Virus record (IMG/VR): IMGVR_UViG_3300021426_000080
Span: 27,744 to 91,743 of that record
DNA: 64,000 nt
DNA from: a virus
Taxonomy: Duplodnaviria > Heunggongvirae > Uroviricota > Caudoviricetes
Strand: one strand, 5' to 3'
A model generated the notes under the pieces. The model worked only from the letters and a program-made list of their open reading frames with translations. It was not told the DNA's origin and searched no databases. This document shows, in pieces, positions 2,254 through 62,918 of this stretch. Position 1 is the first letter of the stretch. Each line of letters begins with the position of its first letter. Both the position numbers and the translations under genes were made by a program.

Positions 2254-4371
2254 ATGGCTGACGAAAACCGTAAAATGAACCGGAGAGTAGTATTCGAGCC
2301 TTATGACATGGATACTGCAAATGGAACGAATAACTCCGGCGTTCTTATGTTTTCTCCTTATCTGGAGGACATTGACCGTGTTTCCAGCGTGATATCTGGC
2401 GGAGACGGTGTCGGTTCGGAGGCTCCTGTGTATAACGCACAGGACTCCGTCCTCTGGTGCAATATGAGAGATGCTTTCAAAGCCGAGATGATGGCCATGT
2501 ATCGGACTCTTCGTGCTAACGGCATCTGGAGTTATGACGAAGTAGAACAGCGATATGAAAACCATCAATCGATTTGGCCGGAAGCTATTTTCAATGAGGA
2601 CGCCTGGGTTAAGTATATTATTCCGCTTGTTGATCCGGTAACCATTGATGAAGATACCGGTAAACCAATTCGAACGGATCGATATTTGACTATGCTGCAG
2701 GGTTCGAAAGAAGAGCAGCGTAAATGGTGGCTGTATAATCGGTTCCGTTATCTCGACAGTAAATACGATACGGGCAACGCTACTGCCAATACGATTAACA
2801 TTCGATTCTTTAACGAAGGCGTATTGAGAATTAAAGCCGCAATCCCAATGTATATTGCGGTCAGCTTTGGCGGCGGCACAACACCAATTCTGAAGCGTAC
2901 GGAAGTTGGTACGGCATCCGAGTTTCCTTATGTTGCTCCGACTGGCGTAACTGAAATGGAGACGTGGATTCACTCTGCGAATTTGATTACAGATGTCGGA
3001 GATTTGAGCCAGTTCTATCCAAACGAATGCGACTTCTCAAAAGCTGTATTGCTGAAAAGACTTAAGATTGGTGATGCGACCGAGGGATATTCTAATACCA
3101 ACTTGGTAACGCTGGACGTTCGTAACTGCCAGTTGCTGGAGTATATTGACTGCCGTAATTGCCCGAGACTAGGTATTACCGTTAATCTTGAGAATTCGCC
3201 TCGTCTGGTTGAAGCATATTTTGACGGAACGATTATCACGGGCGTTGATCTTGCGGACGGCTGCGTGATTGAGAAACTTCATTTGCCTGCCACGGTTACA
3301 GCCCTGACGCTTCTGAATCTGAAGAAGCTGAATGAGTTTGTGCTGCCGGATTATTCAAATATTTCTCGGCTGATGTTGTCCAACATTGACGCTTCTGTCG
3401 TAAATCCGGTAACGATTCTGAATGCGATCCCAGCAAGGTCCCAGGTTAATATTCAGGGATTATATTTGACCTTTGCGTCTCTGTCTGAGATTGAAGACTT
3501 CTACGATTTGCTGGACACTATGACCGGTGTAACGAGAGAACGCAGCTCCACGACCGGAGAATGGGTCTATCATGACGAAGAGAATGCGATTGTCAGCGGC
3601 GAAGTACATACCGGGACGCTTACTGGAGAGCAGATTGATGCGCTGATGGCTCGGTATCCTTATATTCGTGTAACGGCCGATCATTTGTCAACAGAATTGA
3701 AGTACTATAACTATGACGGCACGACATTGCTGCACACGGAAACAATCCTTGACAGTGGTGACGGCTCGTGGAATGGAAATCCGACAAGAACCGCAGATGC
3801 TCAGTATACTTATACGTTTGCTGGCTGGTCTTTGTATCAGGACGGCTCTGCCGACATGAATGCAACAAAGAATGTAAGTCGGAATCGTTCGGTGTATGCG
3901 GCGTATACAAAGACTGTCAATACTTATACCGTAACGTGGAAGAACGCCGATGGAACAGTACTTGAAACTGATAATAATGTTCCTTATGGAACCGTTCCCA
4001 CCTATGACGGAGAAACTCCTACACAAGACGGCGTAGAATCAACCGGCTGGACTCCTGAGGTCGCTTCTGTAACTGGGAACGCTGTCTATACCGCAACTTA
4101 TATTCCGCATTATACTGCGACATTTGTTACATCTGAGGATGACGGTGGGCAGACTCTGTGGTCAGGACGCTTTGCCGAGAATACGACTCCTGTCTACGGT
4201 GGATCCACACCCACTACAACCCAGGGTGACAGTACCGAGTTCGAGTTCATCGGCTGGGAGCCTGCACTTGGACCTATTACAACAAACACAACCTATACCG
4301 CGAAATTCCAGGATATGAGAGCATTGACGATTCAGTTCCTGGCGCGGACCATGAAAGAATACGAGGGGTGA
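2254..4371 (+). CDS. tail fibre / receptor-binding protein with LRR block and Listeria-Bacteroides (Flg_new-type) repeats
   Basis: RBS AGAGGAGG upstream of ATG 2254 (the track start at 2227 is TTG). LRR-like LxxLxLxxN stretch (LVTLDVRNCQLLEYIDCRNCPRL...). Repeated ~35-aa units YTVTWKN.DGT...P.YDG..PT. C-terminal QFLARTMKEYEG module shared with 6910..8151. Confidence 0.65.
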   Translation: MADENRKMNRRVVFEPYDMDTANGTNNSGVLMFSPYLEDIDRVSSVISGGDGVGSEAPVYNAQDSVLWCNMRDAFKAEMMAMYRTLRANGIWSYDEVEQRYENHQSIWPEAIFNEDAWVKYIIPLVDPVTIDEDTGKPIRTDRYLTMLQGSKEEQRKWWLYNRFRYLDSKYDTGNATANTINIRFFNEGVLRIKAAIPMYIAVSFGGGTTPILKRTEVGTASEFPYVAPTGVTEMETWIHSANLITDVGDLSQFYPNECDFSKAVLLKRLKIGDATEGYSNTNLVTLDVRNCQLLEYIDCRNCPRLGITVNLENSPRLVEAYFDGTIITGVDLADGCVIEKLHLPATVTALTLLNLKKLNEFVLPDYSNISRLMLSNIDASVVNPVTILNAIPARSQVNIQGLYLTFASLSEIEDFYDLLDTMTGVTRERSSTTGEWVYHDEENAIVSGEVHTGTLTGEQIDALMARYPYIRVTADHLSTELKYYNYDGTTLLHTETILDSGDGSWNGNPTRTADAQYTYTFAGWSLYQDGSADMNATKNVSRNRSVYAAYTKTVNTYTVTWKNADGTVLETDNNVPYGTVPTYDGETPTQDGVESTGWTPEVASVTGNAVYTATYIPHYTATFVTSEDDGGQTLWSGRFAENTTPVYGGSTPTTTQGDSTEFEFIGWEPALGPITTNTTYTAKFQDMRALTIQFLARTMKEYEG

Positions 4372-11532: not shown

Positions 11533-11598
11533 AGAGACGTGGTGTAACAGGTAACATACCAAAAACGGAGATTGTAGGTTCAAGTCCTACCGTCTTTT
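11533..11598 (+). ncRNA. tRNA-like element: acceptor stem + D-arm + T-arm (GGTTCAAGTCC), anticodon arm truncated
   Basis: AGAGACG / CGTCTTT form a 7-bp acceptor stem. D-stem is GTGT/ACAT. Perfect T-arm GTAGG-TTCAAGT-CCTAC. Only 16 nt lie between the D- and T-arms, so it is not a canonical tRNA. Confidence 0.3.
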
Positions 11599-12526: not shown

Positions 12527-13315
12527 ATGGACGAAGTAATGAAAATCTATAATCCGAGAAAACAGCTTCCGATTATGTCTCATGAAGAAGCTTCAGCCGT
12601 TATCGTAAAGGAAGCGAAAAATAAATCAAAATGGAATAAATTCTGTGATTATTTGTTTGATGGTAAGGCCTGGAAGAACGTTTTCGTTGAGAACGCCAAG
12701 AGAGAACATGAGCTTGAGCATAAGTATCCATGGTTCGAGATTCTCTATCGGTGGACCATTGCATTGCTGATCTTTCTGCTTTGCGTGTCCTTTGTCATCT
12801 GGGGAATCAATATTCACACAAGGCGTACCGCACAGGCTTATGCCGATTCGATCGCAGCTCAGAAGGATGCAGAACATCAGGCATTTATCGCTCAGCAGGA
12901 AGCCGACAAACTTGCGGCGGAACAGTCTCTTGAGAATATTATGAAAGTCAACGCCCAGGTAAAAGCAAAACTTGGATACGGCAGCCGCAATTTCATCGAA
13001 AAGTATAACTACTCGGATGCTGATTTCATGACTCTTTACCAGTGCATTGACAATCGCCTCAAGAATTCTATGTACACTGGTATGACGATTGACGAAATCG
13101 CATTTCAGGAAGGACAGTTTATTGCATCGTATGATACGAATCCAGTACAGGATTATTACTTCAACCTGGCGATGAAGTCTGAGAGACTTAAGCATAATCA
13201 GGTATCAGATCCGGTCGGAACCGATTACGTTTATACGATTTACACGCCGCATGGAATCTTTCTCGCAAATGATCCGAAAGCACCGGCCTATACCTGGTGG
13301 AGATATTCGGAATAA
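12527..13315 (+). CDS. membrane protein with coiled coil (possible superinfection-exclusion/abortive-infection function)
   Basis: RBS AAAGGAGAA then ATG 12527. TM segment WTIALLIFLLCVSFVIWGI. Located in the lysogeny module. Confidence 0.4.
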   Translation: MDEVMKIYNPRKQLPIMSHEEASAVIVKEAKNKSKWNKFCDYLFDGKAWKNVFVENAKREHELEHKYPWFEILYRWTIALLIFLLCVSFVIWGINIHTRRTAQAYADSIAAQKDAEHQAFIAQQEADKLAAEQSLENIMKVNAQVKAKLGYGSRNFIEKYNYSDADFMTLYQCIDNRLKNSMYTGMTIDEIAFQEGQFIASYDTNPVQDYYFNLAMKSERLKHNQVSDPVGTDYVYTIYTPHGIFLANDPKAPAYTWWRYSE

Positions 13316-13327
13316 AGGAGGATACTA

Positions 13328-13525
13328 ATGGGCCAACATAAATATAATCCAAAAGCGATTGCTGCGAAAAATGGAGAAATTCCGCCAAAGCCAAAACAAC
13401 CGTCAAAAAGAGAACGTGAGGCCATAACTTATATGGCCTTTCAAAAAGCAATGCATGATAAAGGGCTATTGACGCCGTTCGATATGAATATTCTTTTTGG
13501 CGTTGATAATACTTATTTAAACTAA
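13328..13525 (+). CDS. hypothetical protein (65 aa)
   Basis: RBS AAAGGAGG 6 nt upstream. Confidence 0.4.
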   Translation: MGQHKYNPKAIAAKNGEIPPKPKQPSKREREAITYMAFQKAMHDKGLLTPFDMNILFGVDNTYLN

Positions 13526-13559
13526 AACGCTATATTATAATAAGGAAGGGATTTATAGA

Positions 13560-14090
13560 ATGAAAACTTACAACTTTAATATTTACAAGTATCACATTAC
13601 CGTGACGATTGAGAAGAAGTCGTATAAGACGGCAGAGGATGAACTTAAGTCTAAAATCGAAGCCATCAATTTGAAATTTGACGAAAAGTATCTAAAACCG
13701 GTAACCGTTGATGAAATTCTTGAATATTGCGGTGTTAAAAAAGATCCAGAAGAAATCAAAATGGAAGAAAAAGCTTCAGATTTATGCGTCCTGGAAGCAG
13801 CCGAAAAGTATATTCAGGCCAAACGAGGCAAACTGGCAGATTCGACAAGAAAAGGCTATATGAATATTGTCGACAATCATCTTAGCGGCATTTGGTTATA
13901 CAGACTTGACAGACTTACCGAAGAGCATCTTCAGGAAGCTTTTGATGCGGAAATTGCAAAAGGTCTCAGCGTGAAGACTCTGAAAGGCTATAGAACATTT
14001 ATCATGAAGGTTCTTGCCGAGTATTGTCCGGACTTTCATCCGAACATTCGTGTAACCAAGGAGGGTGTAAATGAAACTCCCAAAACCTAA
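13560..14090 (+). CDS. integrase N-terminal SAM-like (core-binding) domain protein lacking catalytic domain (truncated integrase paralog)
   Basis: AEKYIQAKRGKLADSTRKGYMNIVDNHLSGIWLYRLDRLTEEHLQEAF..KGLSVKTLKGYRTFIMKVLAEY matches the integrase core-binding domain pattern. No RHRY catalytic residues. Overlaps the int start by 20 nt. Confidence 0.5.
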   Translation: MKTYNFNIYKYHITVTIEKKSYKTAEDELKSKIEAINLKFDEKYLKPVTVDEILEYCGVKKDPEEIKMEEKASDLCVLEAAEKYIQAKRGKLADSTRKGYMNIVDNHLSGIWLYRLDRLTEEHLQEAFDAEIAKGLSVKTLKGYRTFIMKVLAEYCPDFHPNIRVTKEGVNETPKT

Positions 14091-15123
14091 ACAACTTAAA
14101 TCCGGTAATTGGAGAATACAGATCCAAATTAATGGAGAGCGATATTCTCGCACTGGAGCCACAAAGAAAGAAGCTCTTGAGAAAGCTAAGCAAGTTATCG
14201 CTGGCATTGAAGCGGAAAAACGTATTCCTTTGACTCTCGGTAAGGCCATTGACAAATATATTGAAGCTAAGACCGCAGTTCTTTCGCCATCAACCATTCG
14301 CGGATATAAGTCAGTTAGGAGAAATTATTTTCCGAATATTATTGATAAGAATATTTCAGACCTGACCCAGTCAGATATTCAGTTTGCCATGAGTTCGCTC
14401 GCAGCAAAAGGACTATCCCCGAAAACGATCAAAAATGCTCATGGTCTTCTCAATTCTACTTTTGAAATGTTCAGACCAAATTTTACGCTGAGAACAAGAC
14501 TTCCGAAGAGTCAGAAAACCGAAATGCGGATATTCTCTGAAGCTGAAATGAAGAAAGTTTTTGAAGCTGCAAAAGGTGATACATATGAAATTACGATTTT
14601 GCTTGCTGCATGGCTCGGCCTTCGAATGGGTGAGGTCAGAGGCTTGAAGTACGGCGATCTTAAAGATGGAAGACTTCATGTTCATACTACAATTGTTCGC
14701 GATTCAAACGGCAAAGACGTCGAAAAGAGCACAAAGACTACCTCTGGAGACCGCTATATTAAATGCCCAGGAGCAATTCAACATCTGATCGTGGTGAGAA
14801 GGTTAGAGCTTGAAAATTCCGGTATGAATAAAAAGGATATTTCTAAGACTTACGTTTGCCCATGGAAAGATAATACAATCTACAAAAACTTTATCCGGAT
14901 CTGTAAGAAGGCTGGAGTTGAGCCTTGTAGATTCCACGATCTTAGACATTTTATGGCAAGCGAAGGGCATGCTCTTGGAATTCCGAACAAGTATCTGACG
15001 AAACGTATGGGGCATAAGACTGAACATATGCTTCAGAATGTTTATCAGCATACGATTAGCGATATGGTTGATGAATTCGATTCTCTGATTGACGAAAAAA
15101 TGGAGAAATTGTATAATGAATAA
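14071..15123 (+). CDS. int: tyrosine integrase (site-specific recombinase)
   Basis: RBS AAGGAGGG. Arm-binding N-terminus SGNWRIQIQINGERYSRTG. Catalytic residues LRMGEVRGL (Arg), HDLRHF (His-x-x-Arg), GHKTEHMLQNVYQHT (Tyr). Confidence 0.85.
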   Translation: MKLPKPKQLKSGNWRIQIQINGERYSRTGATKKEALEKAKQVIAGIEAEKRIPLTLGKAIDKYIEAKTAVLSPSTIRGYKSVRRNYFPNIIDKNISDLTQSDIQFAMSSLAAKGLSPKTIKNAHGLLNSTFEMFRPNFTLRTRLPKSQKTEMRIFSEAEMKKVFEAAKGDTYEITILLAAWLGLRMGEVRGLKYGDLKDGRLHVHTTIVRDSNGKDVEKSTKTTSGDRYIKCPGAIQHLIVVRRLELENSGMNKKDISKTYVCPWKDNTIYKNFIRICKKAGVEPCRFHDLRHFMASEGHALGIPNKYLTKRMGHKTEHMLQNVYQHTISDMVDEFDSLIDEKMEKLYNE

Positions 15124-15289
15124 AAAGAGAATGATCAGAAACGGCGAACTTGTTGATGTATATTATAATGAGAACGGCGAAGAAGAATTGGTTCATTGGG
15201 TTCGTACTCCAAGAAATTCCGGGCGATACCCTTGGCCTAAAACCAGTATTTCTGAAAAGAGTGCACACGAAAATGCACACGGAGAATGA
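15116..15289 (+). CDS. small protein sharing an N-terminal TPR(N/H)SGRYPWG motif with the gene at 63790
   Basis: ELVHWVRTPRNSGRYPWPKTS compared with FLEHYGTPRHSGRYPWGSGKN at 63790. The start is uncertain. Confidence 0.3.
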   Translation: MNKKRMIRNGELVDVYYNENGEEELVHWVRTPRNSGRYPWPKTSISEKSAHENAHGE

Positions 15290-15328
15290 GGAACGTAGTA
15301 AATACGGGCCAGTTAAGGGGTTTGTATG

Positions 15329-15356
15329 ACGGGTTCGACTCCCATCATCCGCTCCA
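15329..15356 (+). other. tRNA 3'-half fragment (T-arm GGGTTCGACTCCC + acceptor 3' strand + CCA): candidate attP core
   Basis: ACGGG-TTCGACT-CCCAT-CATCCGC-T-CCA. No complementary 5' acceptor strand upstream. Lies 200 nt downstream of int. Confidence 0.5.
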
Positions 15357-15405
15357 TGGTGAGAGGCTCCTAAATCTGGAGTCTCTCAGTTTTTACTGAT
15401 ATTTT

Positions 15406-15451
15406 AGGCCTTCTTGGGTGAGATCTTCGTTTCATCTGGGAAGGCCTTTTT
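15406..15451 (+). terminator. rho-independent terminator
   Basis: AGGCCTTC-N26-GAAGGCCT followed by TTTTT. Confidence 0.65.
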
Positions 15452-15549
15452 GCATTTCTAAGCAAAATTTCTGCACATGAAAGTGCACACGGGATATTTT
15501 GTGTGCATTTACTCGAGCGATTTAAAGTGCGAAAGTAAAAGGAGAACAA

Positions 15550-15993
15550 ATGACGAGTGATACAGAAATCAAAATGAAAGAAATTAGTAATCGGATTACA
15601 GATCTTAAACTTGAATATGAGCGATTGCATGGCGATTATATCAGAGAATTGCAAGATAAGCTTGGCAAGTTAGTTGGAATGTCATTTAAAAGTAAAAACG
15701 GAGCATATTATTTTAGAATCATCGATAATCCAATTGTAGAGTACAAGAAAGCGTACACGTCATTCAATGAATATCGGCTGCCGGCTCTAACTTACTATAG
15801 TGATCCGACCGATCATGGAGATGTTGGAAGACTTGGTATACAAGAAATATATTCGGAAGCAGCCCACGCCGAAAATCCAATCGATTTCATTAGGAGCGAA
15901 TACACGGAAGTGTCGCCAGAGGAATTTGATGAAATTCTAGAAGGAGCATTTTCCGAGATTAAAGCTCTTGGAAAGCGAGGTGATGCCAAATGA
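15550..15993 (+). CDS. hypothetical early protein (147 aa)
   Basis: RBS AAAAGGAGAA. First gene after the operator-like region. Confidence 0.5.
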   Translation: MTSDTEIKMKEISNRITDLKLEYERLHGDYIRELQDKLGKLVGMSFKSKNGAYYFRIIDNPIVEYKKAYTSFNEYRLPALTYYSDPTDHGDVGRLGIQEIYSEAAHAENPIDFIRSEYTEVSPEEFDEILEGAFSEIKALGKRGDAK

Positions 15994-16086
15994 AAGAACA
16001 CTACAGCATAGTTCCTGATGGATGCGGTGGCTGGAGAACTAATCCGGATTATATGTAGTAAAATCTCTTGGAAAGCGAGGCGATGT
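15962..16086. repeat. direct repeat AAA(G/A)CTCTTGGAAAGCGAGG(T/C)GATG (two full copies, one degenerate third)
   Basis: Copies at 15962-15986 and 16062-16086. A partial third copy near 16146. Confidence 0.6.
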
Positions 16087-16269
16087 GTAAATGTATGGAT
16101 ATGTTCAAAACGCGAGTGCTGATAAACTAAGTCCTATAATGTAGTTAAAGCTCTCTCGTGAAGTCGACCGCGGGAGGGCTTTATTAATATATGGAAGGTG
16201 AGCGGAGATGATTTATATGGACTAAAATAATTAATGAAAGGATGATGCTTAATAGCGTTTTTCGAGCAA

Positions 16270-16581
16270 ATGTGTGAAATGACCGGGTACAAGCCTCAAA
16301 CTACTTTCTGGGATGACTTTATGATCGCAGAAAAATTTGGAGTAGACGCTGTTCGAGATACCTATAATCGAGCTATGAGAGCTTTGCGTGGCAATTATAT
16401 TTATCTAACCGAGCTGGTCATGGTTCTAAACTGGAATATTTGGTATTGGAATGGTGCAGGAACAAAGAAAGCTGAAGAACTTACGGAAGTGTATAATGAT
16501 CTCTTGGAGAAAGCCGATGAATATGCGCTCGACCATTTGACCGGTGATGAGCTTCAGTATTTTCTAAGGACGGTGGACTAA
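16270..16581 (+). CDS. hypothetical protein, partner of RadC-JAB (possible anti-restriction/ polyvalent-protein-type domain)
   Basis: Contiguous with the RadC-like gene. No motif firmly recognised. Confidence 0.4.
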   Translation: MCEMTGYKPQTTFWDDFMIAEKFGVDAVRDTYNRAMRALRGNYIYLTELVMVLNWNIWYWNGAGTKKAEELTEVYNDLLEKADEYALDHLTGDELQYFLRTVD

Positions 16582-16591
16582 GACGGAATAC

Positions 16592-17035
16592 ATGATTCCT
16601 GAAGTTCGTTCAAGAATGTATACACAAGAAGTCGGTGCAATGTATGGACGAAAACCTATCAAATCAACCATTGATGCTGCGGATGCTTTGATGGAGCATT
16701 TTTATGATGCTGATAAAGAATACTTTGTTGTAGTTCATATGGATTCTCAAGGAAGGCCGATTAGCTTTTCTGTGGTATCATCCGGCGATGTTAACGCTGT
16801 ACATTTTCCGATATCGAGCGTATTTAAAACAGCGCTCTTACAGAACGCCGCCTCTATTATTCTGTGCCATAATCATCCTGGCGGAACTTTATCTCCTTCT
16901 ACAGAAGACCTTGAGGCGACAAGGATGCTGGTTGAAGCCGGAAAGATGCTCGGAATAAAAGTTCTGGACCATTTCATTATTACACCAACAGATTACCTTA
17001 GCTTGCGAGAGAGAAGAGGTGATCTGTTTAATTAA
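16592..17035 (+). CDS. RadC-like JAB/MPN metalloprotease domain protein
   Basis: JAMM motif HNHPGGTLSPSTEDLEATRML (H-x-H-P-x-G ... S-x-x-D). Size about 147 aa, typical of the RadC C-terminal domain. Confidence 0.7.
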   Translation: MIPEVRSRMYTQEVGAMYGRKPIKSTIDAADALMEHFYDADKEYFVVVHMDSQGRPISFSVVSSGDVNAVHFPISSVFKTALLQNAASIILCHNHPGGTLSPSTEDLEATRMLVEAGKMLGIKVLDHFIITPTDYLSLRERRGDLFN

Positions 17036-57119: not shown

Positions 57120-60100
57120 GTGAAGAACAGCAAGGACTTGATGATACGAGGAAGCGACTTTTATGCGGTCTGGGATGAGCAACGAGGTGTATGGTCGACT
57201 GAGCAGGATGATGCCACCGGATTGATCGATGCTGAGATGGATGCATACAAAGCAAAGATGGAGAAAGAGAATCCTCAGTTTGCAAACGCAAGAATATTAT
57301 ATTTGTGGAACTCGGATACCGGAATGATCGATAAGTGGCATAAGTATGTTCAAAAGCAGCTTGTTGATAATTTTCATCCGTTGAATCAGAAGGTTGTGTT
57401 TTCGAATACAGAACCGCGACGTGAAGATTATTCGTCTTTTCATTTGCCTTACGCACTTGAGCCAGGAAGCACGGATGCCTGGGATGAAATGGTCAGAACA
57501 TTATATTCTCCTCCAGAACGCCATAAGATTGAATGGCTTATCGGATCAGTTGTAAGTGGCGATAGTAAGGAGCTTCAGAAATTTGGAGTGTTCTACGGTG
57601 ATTCAGGAACGGGTAAATCAACGATCCTTGATATTATCGCAAAAATGTTTAAAGGTTATGACTGCACATTTAATGCGAAAGCGCTTGGAAGCTCTACCAG
57701 CGAATTTGCGTTGGAACCGTTTAAGAACAATCCATTGGTTGCGATTCAGCAGGACGGCGATCTGAGTAAGATTGAAGATAACGCCAGATTGAATAGTCTT
57801 GTGTCCCACGAAGAAATCATTGTGAATGAAAAGCATAAGAGCCAGTATGGAAGCAGGTTCTATGCGATGCTTTTCATGGGAACTAATAAACCGGTTAGAA
57901 TTACGGATTCAAGAAGCGGTATTATTCGAAGACTAATTGATATTTCTCCTACAGGAAAGCTTATTCCGAAGAAACGGTATTTGAAATTGAAGGAACAGAT
58001 TGACTTTGAGCTCGGAGCTATTGCGTGGCATTGCCGTGAGGTGTTTCTTGAGGATCCGTATTATTACGACACCTATACGCCGCAGGCAATGATCGGAGCC
58101 ACAAACGATTTCTACAACTTTATGGAAGAGTATCTGGATGAATTCCTTAGAAAAGATTACACGACTCTGAAAGAAGCATGGACGAAGTACCAGATTTACT
58201 GCAATGAAGCCAAGGTTCCATATCCGTATTCGATGCGATCCTTCAAGGAAGAGTTGAAGAACTACTTCCGCGAGTACAAGGAAAGATATCGTACGGACAG
58301 CGGAGAGCAGCTGCGGAAGTGGTACGGAGGATTGAGAAGATCGAAGTTCGGAATGGAAGAGTTGGTTTCTGAGGAATCTGATGACATTGAAGTAAAAGAT
58401 ATTGCTGATGAGGATGCTGCGGAAGCGGAAGGGTATAGCAATTGGATTAAGCTCGATGAGCGCCCCAGTCTTTTGGATGATATTCTAGCTGATTGTCCTG
58501 CTCAGTATGCTGTTCCGACAGATACTGGCGGGGATCGTCCGGAATTCAAATGGGAGAAATGTAAGACCAAGCTTTGCGATCTGGACACATCAAAGCTGCA
58601 TTACATTCGTTTTCCAATTGATATTCAGAACCATATTGTAATCGACTTTGATCTTAAAGATCCGTCAACCGGCGAGAAATCTCTTGAAAGGAATTTAGCG
58701 GAAGCTTCGAAATGGCCGAAGACATATGTTGAAACCAGTCGGAGCGGAAAAGGTCTTCATTTGCATTATATTTACAAAGGCGACGTTACAAAGTTAAGCC
58801 GAATCTATGACGATAATGTTGAAGTGAAGGTATTTACAGGTAATTCGTCTTTGAGGAGACAGCTAAAGCTCTGCAATGATATTCCGATTGCTGAGATTAA
58901 TTCTGGATTGCCTATGAAGGAGGAGGCGCGAGTGATAAACTTTGATGGTTTGAAGTCTGAGAAGGCCCTTCGAACCGCAATAAAAAGGAATTTAAACAAA
59001 GAGATCCACGCTGACACAAGATCGAGCGTGGATTTTATATTTAAGATCCTGAACGATGCGTATGAATCCGGAATGCATTATGACGTTACCGATCTTCGTC
59101 CTGCGGTGCTTGGGTTTGCTGCAAAAAGCAGTAATCAGTCTGCATATTGTATTAAGCTCGTAACTAAGATGAAGTTCCAGTCAGAAGATATTTCGGAAGA
59201 TACGGCATTTTCCGATGACGATGAACTCGTATTCTTTGACGTTGAAGTGTTCCCGAATTTCTTCGGCGTTGTCTGGATGACAGATACCGGTAATCCGGTT
59301 AAGATGATCAACCCGACAGCAAAAGATATTGAGAAGCTTTGTGAGAGAAAGTTGGTAGGATTCAATAATCGCGAGTATGACAACCACATTCTGTATGCCA
59401 GGATGATGGACTATGATAATTACGGTCTGTATGTTCTTTCGCAGAGAATCATAAGCGGCAGCAAGAATTCTAAGTTTAGGGAAGCATACAATCTGTCTTA
59501 TACAGATATTTACGATTTTGCTTCCAAGAAGCAGAGCTTGAAGAAATGGGAGATCGAGCTTGATATTCATCATCAAGAACTTGGACTTCCGTGGGATCAG
59601 CCGGTTCCTGAAGAGTTATGGGATAAGGTTATGGACTATTGTGTGAACGATGTCGTTGCTACAAAGGCAACGTTTCATGCGTTGAGTGCGGATTTCGTTG
59701 CAAGAGAGATTCTTGCAGATATTTCCGGGCTTACCGTAAATCACACAACAAATCAGCATACAACCAAGATAATCTTCGGCGATGATCCGAATCCTCAGAT
59801 CCAGTTTGTGTATACGGATCTTTCTAAGATGTTTCCTGGGTACGAGTATAACGCAATGGGAATCGATCCGAAAAGATATTCCGGAAAGATCGTTCAGGGT
59901 AAGTCCATCTATCGTGGAGAGGATCCTGGGGAAGGTGGACGAGTTTATGCTCAGCCTGGGATGTATGAGAACGTTGCACTTCTTGATATTGCTTCCATGC
60001 ATCCGTCAAGCATCGAGAATCTGAATCTATTCGGAGATAAGTATACGAAGCGATTCAGCGATCTGAAGAAGATCCGAATTCTTATTAAGCATGGCGATTA

Positions 60101-61088
60101 CGAAGGAGCTGCCAAACTGTTTGACGGGAAGCTTACTGGATATTTGCAGGATAAGACACAGGCAAAGGCTCTTGCTCAGGCTCTGAAGATTGTAATTAAC
60201 AGTGTATACGGTTTGACCTCTGCCAGCTTTGATAATAAGTTCCGCGATCCAAGGAATGTTGATAACATCGTTGCAAAGCGTGGAGCGCTATTTATGATCG
60301 AGCTTCAGAAGGCCGTTGAGGAGAAAGGCTATACAGTTGCACATGTTAAGACCGATTCCATCAAGATTCCGGATGCAAATAACGAGATCATTGATTTCGT
60401 AATGAAGTTCGGAGAAAAGTATGGATATACGTTCGAGCACGAAGCAACTTATGAAAAGCTTTGCCTAGTAAACGAAGCCGTGTATATTGCAAAAGATATT
60501 TCTGATGGGCATTGGACAGCCACAGGAACTCAATTTCAGGTTCCATACGTGTTTAAGACGTTGTTTAGTAAAGAGCCGATTGAGTTTAAGGATGTCTGCG
60601 AGACTAAGAGTGTTAAGACTGCTTTATATTTGGACTTCAACGAGGATCTTCCGAATGTTGAAGATAAAGAAGATCGTCTTCAGAAGCTTCTCAAGAAGTA
60701 TGGGCTGACGATGAGTCAGATTAATGGATATTTGGAAACCGGTGATGCTCCGGATCTTCCAGAGGAATCTGGCACTGCTCTGATGGAAGCCTCTGAATTG
60801 GTAAAAGATATTCGAGCCGGACATGATTACAGATTCATCGGACGTGCAGGATCGTTCTGCCCAGTAATCAATGGCGTTGGTGGTGGATATTTGATGCGAG
60901 AGAAAGACGGCAAGTATTCATTTGCAACAGGAGCAAAAGGATATCGGTGGATGGAAGCCGAAGTTCTTAGAGCTCTTGGAACTGAAGAAGCAATGCGCAG
61001 AATTAATCGAAAGTATTACGCTGCGCTTGTAGATGACGCAATTGCCACAATCTCCGAGTATGGAGACTTTGAGGCCTTTGCGTCTTAA
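57120..61088 (+). CDS. fusion replicase: SF3/D5-type P-loop helicase core + AEP prim-pol domain + 3'-5' exonuclease + family-B DNA polymerase
   Basis: Walker A: VFYGDSGTGKST. AEP motifs VIDFDLKD and SGKGLHLHYIY. Exo I FFDVEVFPNFF and Exo III YCVNDVVAT. PolB motif A DIASMHPS, motif B KIVINSVYG, motif C VKTDSI. GTG start from the track; alternative ATG 57141. Confidence 0.75.
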   Translation: MKNSKDLMIRGSDFYAVWDEQRGVWSTEQDDATGLIDAEMDAYKAKMEKENPQFANARILYLWNSDTGMIDKWHKYVQKQLVDNFHPLNQKVVFSNTEPRREDYSSFHLPYALEPGSTDAWDEMVRTLYSPPERHKIEWLIGSVVSGDSKELQKFGVFYGDSGTGKSTILDIIAKMFKGYDCTFNAKALGSSTSEFALEPFKNNPLVAIQQDGDLSKIEDNARLNSLVSHEEIIVNEKHKSQYGSRFYAMLFMGTNKPVRITDSRSGIIRRLIDISPTGKLIPKKRYLKLKEQIDFELGAIAWHCREVFLEDPYYYDTYTPQAMIGATNDFYNFMEEYLDEFLRKDYTTLKEAWTKYQIYCNEAKVPYPYSMRSFKEELKNYFREYKERYRTDSGEQLRKWYGGLRRSKFGMEELVSEESDDIEVKDIADEDAAEAEGYSNWIKLDERPSLLDDILADCPAQYAVPTDTGGDRPEFKWEKCKTKLCDLDTSKLHYIRFPIDIQNHIVIDFDLKDPSTGEKSLERNLAEASKWPKTYVETSRSGKGLHLHYIYKGDVTKLSRIYDDNVEVKVFTGNSSLRRQLKLCNDIPIAEINSGLPMKEEARVINFDGLKSEKALRTAIKRNLNKEIHADTRSSVDFIFKILNDAYESGMHYDVTDLRPAVLGFAAKSSNQSAYCIKLVTKMKFQSEDISEDTAFSDDDELVFFDVEVFPNFFGVVWMTDTGNPVKMINPTAKDIEKLCERKLVGFNNREYDNHILYARMMDYDNYGLYVLSQRIISGSKNSKFREAYNLSYTDIYDFASKKQSLKKWEIELDIHHQELGLPWDQPVPEELWDKVMDYCVNDVVATKATFHALSADFVAREILADISGLTVNHTTNQHTTKIIFGDDPNPQIQFVYTDLSKMFPGYEYNAMGIDPKRYSGKIVQGKSIYRGEDPGEGGRVYAQPGMYENVALLDIASMHPSSIENLNLFGDKYTKRFSDLKKIRILIKHGDYEGAAKLFDGKLTGYLQDKTQAKALAQALKIVINSVYGLTSASFDNKFRDPRNVDNIVAKRGALFMIELQKAVEEKGYTVAHVKTDSIKIPDANNEIIDFVMKFGEKYGYTFEHEATYEKLCLVNEAVYIAKDISDGHWTATGTQFQVPYVFKTLFSKEPIEFKDVCETKSVKTALYLDFNEDLPNVEDKEDRLQKLLKKYGLTMSQINGYLETGDAPDLPEESGTALMEASELVKDIRAGHDYRFIGRAGSFCPVINGVGGGYLMREKDGKYSFATGAKGYRWMEAEVLRALGTEEAMRRINRKYYAALVDDAIATISEYGDFEAFAS

Positions 61089-61673: not shown

Positions 61674-62918
61674 ATGCCATCGTTTTTATACGATTATCAA
61701 ATAGACGCTATTAATCGAATGCGAAATGGCAGTATTCTATGTGGAAAAGTTGGATCCGGAAAGTCAAGAACTTCTATTGCTTATTATTTCATGAAAGAAT
61801 GTGGCGGCTCCGTAATAAATGAGTATATACCGATGTGTAAAACGGTTAATCTGTTTATTATTACTACTGCACGAAAAAGGGATACAAAAGAATGGGAAGG
61901 AGAACTCGTTCCATTCTTGATATCCGCAGATCATCCCGAAGATACGATCTATCAAGATCTTGAAGTTCACATCGATTCATGGAACAACATAGCAAAGTAT
62001 GTTGGAGTAAAAGACTCATTCTTTATATTTGATGAGCAGCGTGTTGTTGGAAGAGGCGCTTGGGTTAAAGCGTTCTTAAAGATTACAAAAGCAAATCATT
62101 GGATTTTACTGTCGGCAACGCCTGGCGATACTTGGATGGATTATGTTCCTGTTTTTATAGCAAATGGATATTTTAGAAACAGAACCGAGTTCAATGAGAG
62201 GCATGTTGTGTTTAGTCGATTTGCGAAGTATCCTCAAGTTTCTAAATATTTGAACGAAGGTCGATTAATTAGATATAGAAACGAGATCCTTGTTACAATG
62301 GATTATCAGAAGCCAACCAGAACTCATGAAGTAATAGTGGATGTCGACTACGATCGAGCTGAATACAAAGATATTATGAACACGCGTTGGAACATTTACA
62401 AAGATCAACCAACTACAAACGCTGCTGAGCTTTGCTACGTTCTTAGAGAGTCTGTCAATTCCGATCCAAGCAGGATCCAAGCGGTTCTTGATATTTTAAA
62501 AGATCATCCAAAGGTCATAGTGTTTTACAATTACAACTATGAGCGAGAGGCTTTGAGGAATGCTCCTTATGGAAAAGATATTTCAGTTGCTGAATGGAAC
62601 GGCGATAAGCATCAGTTAATTCCTAAAACTGATAAGTGGGTGTATCTGGTTCAGTATACAGCAGGAGCCGAAGGCTGGAACTGCATAGAAACAGATACTA
62701 TGATATTTTACTCTTTGAATTATTCATACAAAATCATGACTCAGTCGGCCGGAAGGATTGATCGAATGAATACTCCGTTTACTGATTTGTATTATTACAA
62801 GTTGAAATCAAATAGTCCTATAGATATTGGCATTTCGCACGCGCTTCGAAAGAAACAGAAGTTTAATGAGAACAAATTCTTTGATTCTTTTGATTCGCAA
62901 AAAAAACATCCCTTATAA
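61674..62918 (+). CDS. SNF2/DEAD-like superfamily-2 helicase
   Basis: RBS GAAGAGGAGCGAAC. Motif I GKVGSGKSRTS. Motif II FIFDEQR. Motif III LLSATPG. Motif VI QSAGRIDR. Confidence 0.7.
   Translation: MPSFLYDYQIDAINRMRNGSILCGKVGSGKSRTSIAYYFMKECGGSVINEYIPMCKTVNLFIITTARKRDTKEWEGELVPFLISADHPEDTIYQDLEVHIDSWNNIAKYVGVKDSFFIFDEQRVVGRGAWVKAFLKITKANHWILLSATPGDTWMDYVPVFIANGYFRNRTEFNERHVVFSRFAKYPQVSKYLNEGRLIRYRNEILVTMDYQKPTRTHEVIVDVDYDRAEYKDIMNTRWNIYKDQPTTNAAELCYVLRESVNSDPSRIQAVLDILKDHPKVIVFYNYNYEREALRNAPYGKDISVAEWNGDKHQLIPKTDKWVYLVQYTAGAEGWNCIETDTMIFYSLNYSYKIMTQSAGRIDRMNTPFTDLYYYKLKSNSPIDIGISHALRKKQKFNENKFFDSFDSQKKHPL

Follow-up and report, generated by a model that had tools for sequence, protein, structure and literature searches.

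The region at about 15255-15512 of the window (the whole stretch of 64,000 nt of viral DNA that was analysed) is very probably an attachment site of the phage (attP), on which the lambda-type tyrosine integrase encoded next to it, at 14071-15123, would act. The core of the site reproduces the 3' end of a tRNA-Gly(CCC) gene of clostridial genomes and is framed by repeats on both sides, and junctions formed at exactly this core were recovered in related prophages. Three features carry this reading:

14071..15123, + strand: tyrosine integrase of the lambda-Int type, 350 aa (PF00589, phrog_1 and fold match)
~15255-15512, + strand: very probable attP, made of the core and arm repeats, beside the integrase
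15331..15356, + strand: attP core, GGGTTCGACTCCCATCATCCGCTCCA, 26/26 nt identical to the 3' end of the host tRNA-Gly(CCC)

A tRNA fragment downstream of the integrase gene

The window contains a single copy of the 28-mer ACGGGTTCGACTCCCATCATCCGCTCCA, at 15329-15356 (+ strand), and 100 dinucleotide-preserving shuffles gave none, even at 2 mismatches. The 28-mer begins 205 nt past the stop codon of the integrase gene, in good agreement with the original prediction of a tRNA 3'-half fragment some 200 nt downstream of int. A piece of tRNA is indeed present, but only its last 26 nt match the host gene, i.e., the 3' third of the tRNA and not its half; the first two bases of the 28-mer, AC, are specific to the phage, the host tRNA reading GT there. 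The core comprises three T-stem nucleotides, the T loop TTCGACT, the 3' strand of the T stem (CCCAT), the 3' strand of the acceptor stem (CATCCGC), the discriminator T and CCA. The lack of a 5' acceptor strand upstream, which had also been predicted, was verified, GCGGATG being missing from the preceding 90 nt.

No tRNA gene was called by ARAGORN in the whole window, and Rfam gave no match at the fragment at its gathering threshold; with permissive filters, only a 13-nt T-loop match was obtained there, at 10.5 bits vs. a gathering score of 47. The sole tRNA-like match of the window at the Rfam gathering threshold is located at 11533-11598 and was missed by ARAGORN. A tmRNA reading of the fragment was rejected as well, since Rfam scores no more than 10.5 bits on a 13-nt match, and both the acceptor and the discriminator agree with tRNA-Gly rather than with tmRNA.

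The fragment could in principle be part of a complete but unusual phage tRNA gene, overlooked at first reading and by the standard finders. Such programs are fallible, as illustrated by the element at 11533-11598, found by Rfam and overlooked by ARAGORN, and in a distant relative (L017/L201) ARAGORN reports a "tRNA-Stop(tta)" that overlaps the core. However, neither program shows a tRNA over the fragment, the short T-loop match falls far below the Rfam gathering score, the upstream sequence holds no 5' acceptor strand complementary to CATCCGC, and this upstream sequence is not kept as a tRNA among relatives. We consider the probability of an overlooked gene to be practically nil.

tRNA-Gly genes and the probable host

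In species-representative genomes, the exact 26-mer of the core forms the 3' end of complete tRNA-Gly genes at 119 loci, which disposes of the objection that no host tRNA might share this 3' end. Most of these loci were recognised as tRNA-Gly by their upstream sequence and eight were typed with ARAGORN, yielding tRNA-Gly(CCC) in seven genome loci and tRNA-Gly(GCC) in one; tRNA-Gly(TCC) was found by the same program in four IMG/VR contigs. The carriers of the 119 loci are nearly all Oscillospiraceae, Agathobaculum, Butyricicoccus, Limivicinus or unnamed Clostridia MAGs. Since the core is identical to the 3' end of tRNA-Gly(CCC), the host is probably a member of the Oscillospiraceae or of a related family with this tRNA-Gly(CCC).

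One MAG (L064, run SRR873600) presents an empty matching attB, and a contig with an identical integrase was found in the same run. The sequence L003, from that run, ends 2 nt short of the core end; its reading as an assembly branch at the att site was dropped as uninterpretable. The phage itself is uncultured and about 80 kb in size, and it probably derives from a rumen or gut sample. Among GenBank phages, blastn with positions 13300-16300 of the window retrieved just a stray 63-nt match and no annotated relative.

The integrase and its paralogue

Judged by its sequence, the protein encoded at 14071-15123 is a member of the tyrosine recombinase/phage integrase family PF00589 (Pfam; E 8e-13, 48.9 bits vs. 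a cut-off of 27.1), and the R, H-x-x-R, H and Y residues are kept, which confirms the tyrosine integrase initially proposed. The integrase profile phrog_1 of PHROGs matches the 350-aa ORF at E 2e-55. The best solved relative by sequence is lambda Int (about 19% identity), with the aligned pairs GLRMGEV/GQRVGDL, FHDLRH/FHELRS and MGHKT/LGHKS. Residues R185, K219/K222, H289, R292, H315 and Y325 are unchanged across 14 integrase homologues; Y325, located beyond the end of the lambda Int alignment, was assigned by its invariance and position.

The AF2 model of the integrase (pLDDT 85.6) displays three domains: a beta-sheet with a helix at the N-terminus, followed by the core-binding and catalytic domains. 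Foldseek with the full-length model retrieved lambda Int (5j0n/1z1b) at E 6e-11 over 359-368 aligned columns, and the Tn1549/Tn916-type integrase 6emy at E 8e-11 with a TM of 0.60-0.66. Three beta strands and a helix are predicted for residues 7-50 (pLDDT 82-88), and Pfam matched no arm-binding family on residues 1-67; the model suggests that this N-terminal domain would be the arm-binding domain. In comparison with its closest relative, int exhibits a dN/dS of 0.08 at a dS of 0.70, and the gene is intact and under purifying selection.

A second integrase-like gene lies immediately upstream:

13560..14090, + strand: paralogue of the integrase core-binding region, 176 aa, without catalytic domain (similarity to int and phrog_1)

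The 176-aa protein is 33% identical to residues 49-146 of the integrase (E 1e-12) and matches phrog_1 at E 6e-8. The 3' end of its ORF overlaps the start of int by 20 nt, and the ORF is intact in five relatives. It is possibly an accessory protein.

Layout of the probable attachment site

The core is surrounded by repeats and hairpins, all within about 250 bp:

15262..15282, + strand: P-arm, TGCACACG twice in direct orientation at a distance of 12 bp, putative arm-type sites for the integrase
15334..15340, + strand: predicted overlap region for strand exchange, formed by the T loop (7 nt) with the stem halves GGG and CCC on either side
15360..15396, + strand: terminator-like hairpin 1, an 11-bp stem followed by the T run GTTTTTACTG, directly after CCA (terminator scan)
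15406..15457, + strand: terminator-like hairpin 2, longer, 19 bp with a T run
15472..15492, + strand: P'-arm, direct copies TGCACATG and TGCACACG, putative arm-type sites
15501..15510, inverted: P'-arm, inverted copy GTGTGCATTT, putative arm-type site

Copies of TGCACAYG start at 15262, 15274, 15472 and 15484, so that four of the seven matches in 64 kb fall within 230 bp around the core, for an expected 2.25 in the whole window. These arm repeats correspond to family D1 of the repeat search and are kept in 20 distinct attP sequences. The segment 15270-15460 has a folding z-score of -5.3, and relatives harbor one of three differing hairpin cassettes at the position of hairpin 1.

By analogy with tRNA integration sites of the T-loop class such as that of Ms6 (PMC1762012), the crossover would most likely take place across the 7-nt T loop; L144, a related sequence, has a different first core base, so that the crossover lies to the right of this position. 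For the phage of the window, the junctions would take the form host ...CCGATAAGGT + core + TGGTGAGAGGCTCC... for attL, and ...GGGGTTTGTATGAC + core + host downstream sequence for attR.

In the mechanism that we propose, the N-terminal domain of the integrase would bind the TGCACAYG repeats on both sides, and its core-binding and catalytic domains would hold the core. The integrase would then synapse attP with the tRNA gene, with strand exchange inside the identity block, and the prophage would be placed after an exactly regenerated tRNA-Gly. In attL, the hairpin and T run at 15360-15396 would take over from the terminator of the tRNA gene itself, and the integrase gene would lie at the far end of the prophage, in attR, followed by the 26-bp tRNA fragment.

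Conservation among related phages and junctions with host DNA

Among 20 distinct attP sequences with integrases of 55-92% identity, 19 have an unchanged core and one, L144, departs from it at the first base, and the flanks diverge in this comparison while the core stays invariant. In 17 viral contigs belonging to at least five unrelated flank classes, identity opens at GGG and closes at CCA; in one relative (L158), it reaches 8 nt further into the host tRNA (gataaggt). An integrase homologue (27-90% identity) stands beside the fragment in all the viral contigs that have only the fragment, except L015 and L022, the integrase being nearly all deleted in the latter. The GCACAC arm repeats also occur with more distant integrases, next to other tRNA- or tmRNA-like 3' ends, and the present 3' end of tRNA-Gly is an integration hot spot common to several integrase lineages.

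Junctions of both types were identified in integrated relatives. The sequence L144, whose integrase is 59% identical, is an attR: it is homologous to the window across int, the P arm and the whole core up to its last base, and the sequence beyond shows synteny with the region that follows tRNA-Gly in eight host genomes. The P'-arm repeats are missing, as expected of an integrated form. Similarly, Agathobaculum genomes, including that of A. desmolans ATCC 43058, present an attL in which the right arm of the L005-type phage comes after an entire tRNA-Gly(CCC); the attL junctions at this core are those of L062, L068, L085 and L121. The attP core put forward in the original prediction is thus upheld by the host tRNA match, the invariant core, the arm repeats on both sides and the junctions in related prophages.

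These data weigh heavily against the idea that the fragment is a decayed leftover of a phage-borne tRNA gene and no recombination site. tRNA genes are common in phages, and this genome has a tRNA-like RNA elsewhere, at 11533-11598. Nevertheless, the 26/26 identity with the host is kept in nearly all of the distinct sites although everything 5' of it is unrelated to tRNA, the fragment is found beside integrases across the whole range of identity given above, conserved repeats occur on both of its flanks, and junctions are known at exactly this core. A tRNA remnant is already contradicted by such observations and is extremely improbable.

The attP reading being retained, the search for attL and attR succeeded in more distant relatives, but provided none for the phage itself or for relatives with at least 67% integrase identity. 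Neither IMG/VR nor the JGI metagenome contigs yielded a match to the attL-specific pattern (host GT, core and right arm of the clade). In relatives whose integrase is 67-92% identical, all contigs extending as far as the core show an uninterrupted phage configuration. None of the 108 members listed, out of 158 in nine integrase clusters, is on a contig longer than 97 kb; of two mid-sized cluster contigs inspected, one stops before the core and the other is in phage configuration. None of the 119 genome loci has sequence of the window clade past the core, and an integrase-based search of metagenome contigs gave 12 loci, all informative ones in phage configuration. The 147-aa gene just right of attP and two of its homologues have the integrase on their left each time, with no attL. 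The MAG Sheep_1_mag_55 (L053, L099) was considered as a possible attL/attR pair and set aside, its integrase being just 30% identical and its flanks unassignable.

Temperate or lytic lifestyle

From the attachment site, we infer that this particular phage integrates. The original prediction also called it temperate despite a lytic-looking architecture; the attP reading behind this claim is supported, but neither an integrated copy nor a recognised repressor was found, and that the phage can maintain lysogeny is something we infer. Pfam and PHROGs, applied to 25 ORFs, revealed neither a repressor nor an HTH family, and no arm-binding, Xis, repressor or HTH family was detected with Pfam in the integrase N-terminus and 16 small ORFs near attP, or with PHROGs in eight ORFs flanking int. 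Such negative results with profile libraries and assemblies count as weak evidence on lysogeny. Of 122 ORFs, 112 lie on one strand, there is no divergent control region, and the phage has a DNA polymerase and a helicase of its own. Among the relatives, L022 and L161 show a deletion of the integrase and L171 a split one, which indicates that the int module is dispensable.

The int-attP module could thus be genuine in origin and hardly or never used, in a lytic or transiently carried phage that is losing it. Such disuse would fit with a clade known only from contigs in phage configuration, an attL pattern without match, the deleted or split integrases, the unrecognised repressor, and the unidirectional genes with their own polymerase and helicase. 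On the contrary, int evolves at the low dN/dS given above, and metagenome assembly and MAG binning routinely lose prophage junctions. Moreover, relatives whose synonymous sites are saturated still have perfect copies of the 26-bp core and of the arm repeats, a pattern difficult to account for unless recombination with a host tRNA remains under selection. Disuse of the module is accordingly regarded as quite unlikely, and a functional attP as the preferred reading. A further suggestion, rather speculative and on balance doubtful, is that the 176-aa paralogue may be a hitherto undescribed factor, accessory or controlling directionality, which on att DNA would compete with the integrase or bridge it; with no integrated forms among about 160 clade members, this would point to an unusually restricted lysogeny in large, polymerase-encoding, unidirectional Oscillospiraceae phages.

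The mechanism is a textbook one and the value of the site is mainly practical. The 26-bp core provides a sequence-based host for an uncultured clade of 80-97 kb phages without close GenBank phage relative, and int together with attP, a compact cassette of some 1.5 kb, could be turned into a tool for integration in Clostridia of the gut and rumen, whose engineering is difficult. The ability to lysogenise, a lifestyle call deduced from the site, also bears on ecological models of the rumen and gut viromes.

Comparison with known integration systems

The site of the window can be classified, on sequence grounds, as a tRNA-gene attP of the T-loop/3'-end class, its core matching the last part of a host tRNA gene base for base, through the 3' end, and the phage having no complete tRNA gene there. 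P4, P22, HP1 and L5 are examples of tRNA-integrating phages and islands (Williams 2002 classification). In the general scheme, the integrase gene is located beside an attP containing the 3' portion of a tRNA gene, which is regenerated on integration (PMC1762012), and the integrase of the window likewise adjoins such an attP. L5 uses a tRNA-Gly gene and belongs to the anticodon-loop class (PMC1762012), whereas the window has a block from the T loop to the 3' end.

Lambda Int, a heterobivalent tyrosine recombinase, is the best solved match of the integrase both by sequence and by full-length predicted fold, N-terminal domain included, and the catalytic residues align. The attP of about 250 bp, with arm-type repeats on either side of a short core, is also lambda-like. 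However, the lambda core lies outside a tRNA gene, and the arm sites differ in number and layout, with two direct repeats, the core, then two direct and one inverted repeats in the window; no Xis or IHF sites were identified at the window attP. The fold match with Tn1549/Tn916-type integrases is as strong as with lambda Int, and these elements come from the same bacterial phylum. Tn1549/Tn916-type integrases tolerate non-identical overlap regions and insert in AT-rich targets, not in a tRNA gene. In contrast, the attP of the window keeps a long block of exact identity with the tRNA.

The attP core of mycobacteriophage Ms6 is 26 bp long (AGGGGTTCGAATCCCCTTAGCTCCAC) and extends from the T stem-loop to the 3' acceptor end of a tRNA-Ala gene; its integration requires identical attP and attB cores, and its integrase class targets the tRNA T loop (PMC1762012). 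The core of the window shares this tRNA sublocation and this 26-bp size, whereas its tRNA is Gly-CCC with an encoded CCA and its probable host belongs to the Bacillota, Oscillospiraceae, the likeness being one of site. By this analogy, the attachment site described here is of a known kind, and its closest counterpart is the 26-bp tRNA-Ala core of Ms6.

A tRNA-Gly 3' end downstream of the integrase gene

The 28-nt fragment that the original prediction took for the 3' end of a tRNA occurs once in the window, at 15329-15356 on the + strand, 205 nt beyond the integrase stop codon, and in none of 100 shuffled sequences. The alternative that it belongs to a complete phage tRNA gene found no support: ARAGORN detects no tRNA anywhere in the window, Rfam at gathering threshold over the whole window gives no match at the fragment, and no 5' acceptor strand able to pair with CATCCGC is present upstream. 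Even a permissive Rfam scan of 14900-15700 returned a sole match, in which 13 nt align with the tmRNA model's T loop (10.5 bits).

When the last 26 nt (GGGTTCGACTCCCATCATCCGCTCCA) were scanned against one genome per bacterial species, 119 loci matched, and at nearly all of them a complete tRNA-Gly gene ends in the 26-mer. ARAGORN typed seven loci as tRNA-Gly(CCC), 74 nt long with an encoded CCA; in a few genomes the 26-mer is also found in tRNA-Gly(UCC) or tRNA-Gly(GCC). Carriers are almost all Oscillospiraceae, "Ruminococcaceae" or Clostridiales MAGs of rumen and gut, together with Agathobaculum, Butyricicoccus, Candidatus Limivicinus and Candidatus Ornithomonoglobus. The first two bases of the 28-mer are not shared (AC in the phage versus GT in the host), and the identity block is 15331-15356; the tRNA reading thus stands for the last 26 nt. 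A MAG from run SRR873600 has an unoccupied attB that contains the exact core, and the same run also yields a contig with an identical integrase, making this MAG a plausible candidate host of the window phage. The exact match to host tRNA, the conservation of the core, the arm repeats and the junctions in relatives described below all support the original prediction, and the fragment is very probably an attP core served by the adjacent integrase.

Features of the attachment region and of other phage modules
8889-10469: endolysin with lysozyme, CHAP and PG-binding domains, followed by a Dp1-type holin
14071-15123, +: tyrosine integrase, 350 aa
about 15255-15512, +: whole attP unit, roughly 260 bp
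15262/15274 and 15472/15484, +: two tandem pairs of putative arm-type repeats TGCACAYG, 12-bp spacing
15331-15356, +: core, parsed on tRNA-Gly genes (5' T stem 3 nt, T loop TTCGACT, 3' T stem CCCAT, 3' acceptor strand CATCCGC, discriminator T, CCA)
15360-15388, +: terminator-like hairpin 1 with T run, directly 3' of CCA
15406-15447, +: terminator-like hairpin 2 with T run, downstream of hairpin 1
15501-15510, opposite to the other four: fifth putative arm repeat, inverted, from a motif/repeat search
16592-17035: RadC-like JAB protein, just right of attP (PF04002, E 2e-37)
57120-61088: primase-polymerase, 1322 aa (phrog_4210)
61674-62918: helicase

A tRNA-like RNA at 11533-11598 (+), unrelated in sequence to the attP core, is located after the holin gene and before the following ORF, with a T run downstream. 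Missed by ARAGORN, it scores 44.1 bits with the Rfam tRNA model (gathering 29) and comprises an acceptor stem, D arm and T arm, the anticodon arm being shrunk to CC-AAAAAC-GG. It is kept in seven relatives with compensatory changes at 6 of 18 pairs, and 93.7% of cells are paired, versus 40-63% with the partners slid.

The integrase

The assignment to tyrosine integrases was confirmed by PF00589 (E 8e-13, above the curated cut-off), by phrog_1 (E 2e-55) and by the residues R185, H289, R292, H315 and Y325, invariant across 14 homologues. The best solved relative by sequence is lambda Int, with R, H-x-x-R and H aligned. In an AlphaFold model (pLDDT 85.6), residues 7-50 form an N-terminal beta-sheet and helix, and the rest is made up of a helical core-binding domain and a catalytic domain. 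The best structural matches of the model are the Tn1549 integrase and full-length lambda Int, the latter over 359-368 aligned columns. As modelled, the protein would fit a heterobivalent enzyme reading both arm and core sites; no arm-binding Pfam family matched it.

Upstream, a 176-aa ORF (13560-14090, +) overlaps the integrase start by 20 nt at its 3' end. The encoded protein resembles the core-binding region of the integrase (residues 49-146; 33% identity) and is devoid of a catalytic domain. Counterparts of 142-195 aa are intact in five relatives, and the L145 lineage (integrase 61% identical) has no called gene with an integrase-domain match between holin and integrase. The product may be an accessory factor for recombination.

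Conservation and layout of the attachment site

The exact 26-mer is present on 21 IMG/VR contigs, four of which carry it within a complete tRNA-Gly(UCC) gene in a host-like tRNA cluster. The other 17 harbor the fragment alone, in at least five unrelated flank classes, and in every class identity is limited by GGG at the start and CCA at the end. In 15 of these 17 (exceptions: L015 and L022), the fragment adjoins a gene for an integrase homologue that shares 27-90% identity with the window integrase. In an alignment of 20 distinct sites with integrases about 55-92% identical to the window protein, the core is invariant save for the first base in metagenome contig L144, while divergence of the flanks amounts to 10-30%. 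Synonymous divergence of the window's integrase gene from that of the nearest relative reaches 0.70, with a dN/dS of 0.08, indicating strong purifying selection. Since the core is invariant while flanks and synonymous sites diverge, its retention goes far beyond neutral expectation, as would be expected if a match to a host sequence were required.

The first hairpin after CCA (15357-15400; relatives L007, L009, L013, L020, L155 and L156) is occupied by three unrelated cassettes in otherwise collinear relatives, and the four bases immediately 3' of CCA are likewise variable; the core boundary would be a hot spot of mosaic exchange.

Four of the seven TGCACAYG copies in the 64 kb lie within 230 bp around the core. 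Arm repeats on both sides are kept in relatives, and in other integrase lineages that use this core the corresponding place upstream is taken by tandem repeats of their own. The unit of P arm, core and P' arm is inverted relative to the integrase gene in two lineages, L145-L151 (except L149) and L158, with integrases 61% and 70% identical; its distance downstream of that gene is still about 180-270 nt. After integration, the integrase gene would there adjoin the complete tRNA and no longer be at the far end. In L158, identity to the host tRNA runs 8 nt longer.

Integration junctions in relatives

The attL and attR junctions to be looked for according to the original prediction were recovered in relatives of the phage. 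L144 is an NCBI contig, and its integrase shares 59% identity with that of the window. Homology of L144 to the window covers the integrase gene, P-arm repeats and core, and stops at the last core base. Beyond it, L144 lacks the P' arm and is syntenic with eight host genomes over the stretch that follows tRNA-Gly(CCC), including an RlmI-like methyltransferase gene and further genes; this is an attR junction. On the other side, Agathobaculum genomes (loci L062, L068, L076, L085, L121, L129 and L140), among them the isolate A. desmolans ATCC 43058, harbor a complete tRNA-Gly(CCC), after which comes DNA that shares about 79% identity with the right arm of viral contig L005, a phage with the same core and an integrase 36% identical. 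These attL junctions indicate prophages at the tRNA-Gly(CCC) site in several Agathobaculum species. On a contig derived from an isolate, a relative at 38% identity also lies next to a complete tRNA-Gly(CCC).

Host MAG contigs L103 (positions 1-26), L079, L027, L057 and L049 end 0, 1, 5, 11 and 22 nt past the CCA of tRNA-Gly(CCC), circumstantially suggesting assembly breaks at an insertion-polymorphic site.

Seven IMG/VR contigs (L182-L187 and L190) with integrases 41-56% identical have the same GCACAC arm repeats and a different core, which in L183, L185 and L186 (GGTTCAACTCCCCTCATCTCCACCA) resembles a tmRNA or tRNA-Ala gene at its 3' end; integrases 49-56% identical are among those with a tRNA- or tmRNA-like core. 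Yet another core is present in L188 and L204. Targets appear to be switched by core replacement inside one integrase family. One distant relative (L017 835-907, L201 7053-7125) has an integrase at 47% identity, and there ARAGORN predicts a 'tRNA-Stop (tta)' that ends in the attP core; this is probably a spurious fold of left arm and core, or may alternatively be a suppressor-like tRNA.

Lifestyle

The ability to integrate is strongly implied by the selection on integrase, core and arms, and the window phage may form stable lysogens. The temperate lifestyle originally proposed is probable; against it, neither the phage nor any relative whose integrase is 67% identical or more was found as an integrated copy or at a junction, and no repressor or excisionase was recognised. 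An attL-specific pattern had no match in IMG/VR or JGI metagenomes, and every close relative with a contig that extends to the core is collinear across the site. Among the 108 listed members of nine integrase clusters (158 in all), every contig is at most 97 kb. In the window, 112 of 122 ORFs are on the + strand, and the phage carries its own primase-polymerase and helicase. The source contig is a metagenome scaffold of 79,480 bp in ENA.

Three close relatives have a deleted or split integrase gene: L022 (about 4080-4240) retains attP and only integrase residues 1-32 and 327-349, residue 146 joins directly to the RadC region in L161 (about 906-914), and L171 (694-1691) encodes ORFs of 159 and 165 aa. 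The module would thus be dispensable and repeatedly lost.

Comparison with known systems

All testable features of the tyrosine integrase family and of the tRNA 3'-end attP class were found except the phage's own junctions. The main value of the system lies in host assignment and in a compact integration cassette for Oscillospiraceae. The attP layout and enzyme fold resemble those of lambda Int. The closest described case is mycobacteriophage Ms6, whose 26-bp attP core (AGGGGTTCGAATCCCCTTAGCTCCAC) lies in a tRNA-Ala gene, requires identity with attB for integration and is counted among tRNA integration sites of the T-loop class (PMC1762012); it covers the same part of the tRNA as the core of the window.
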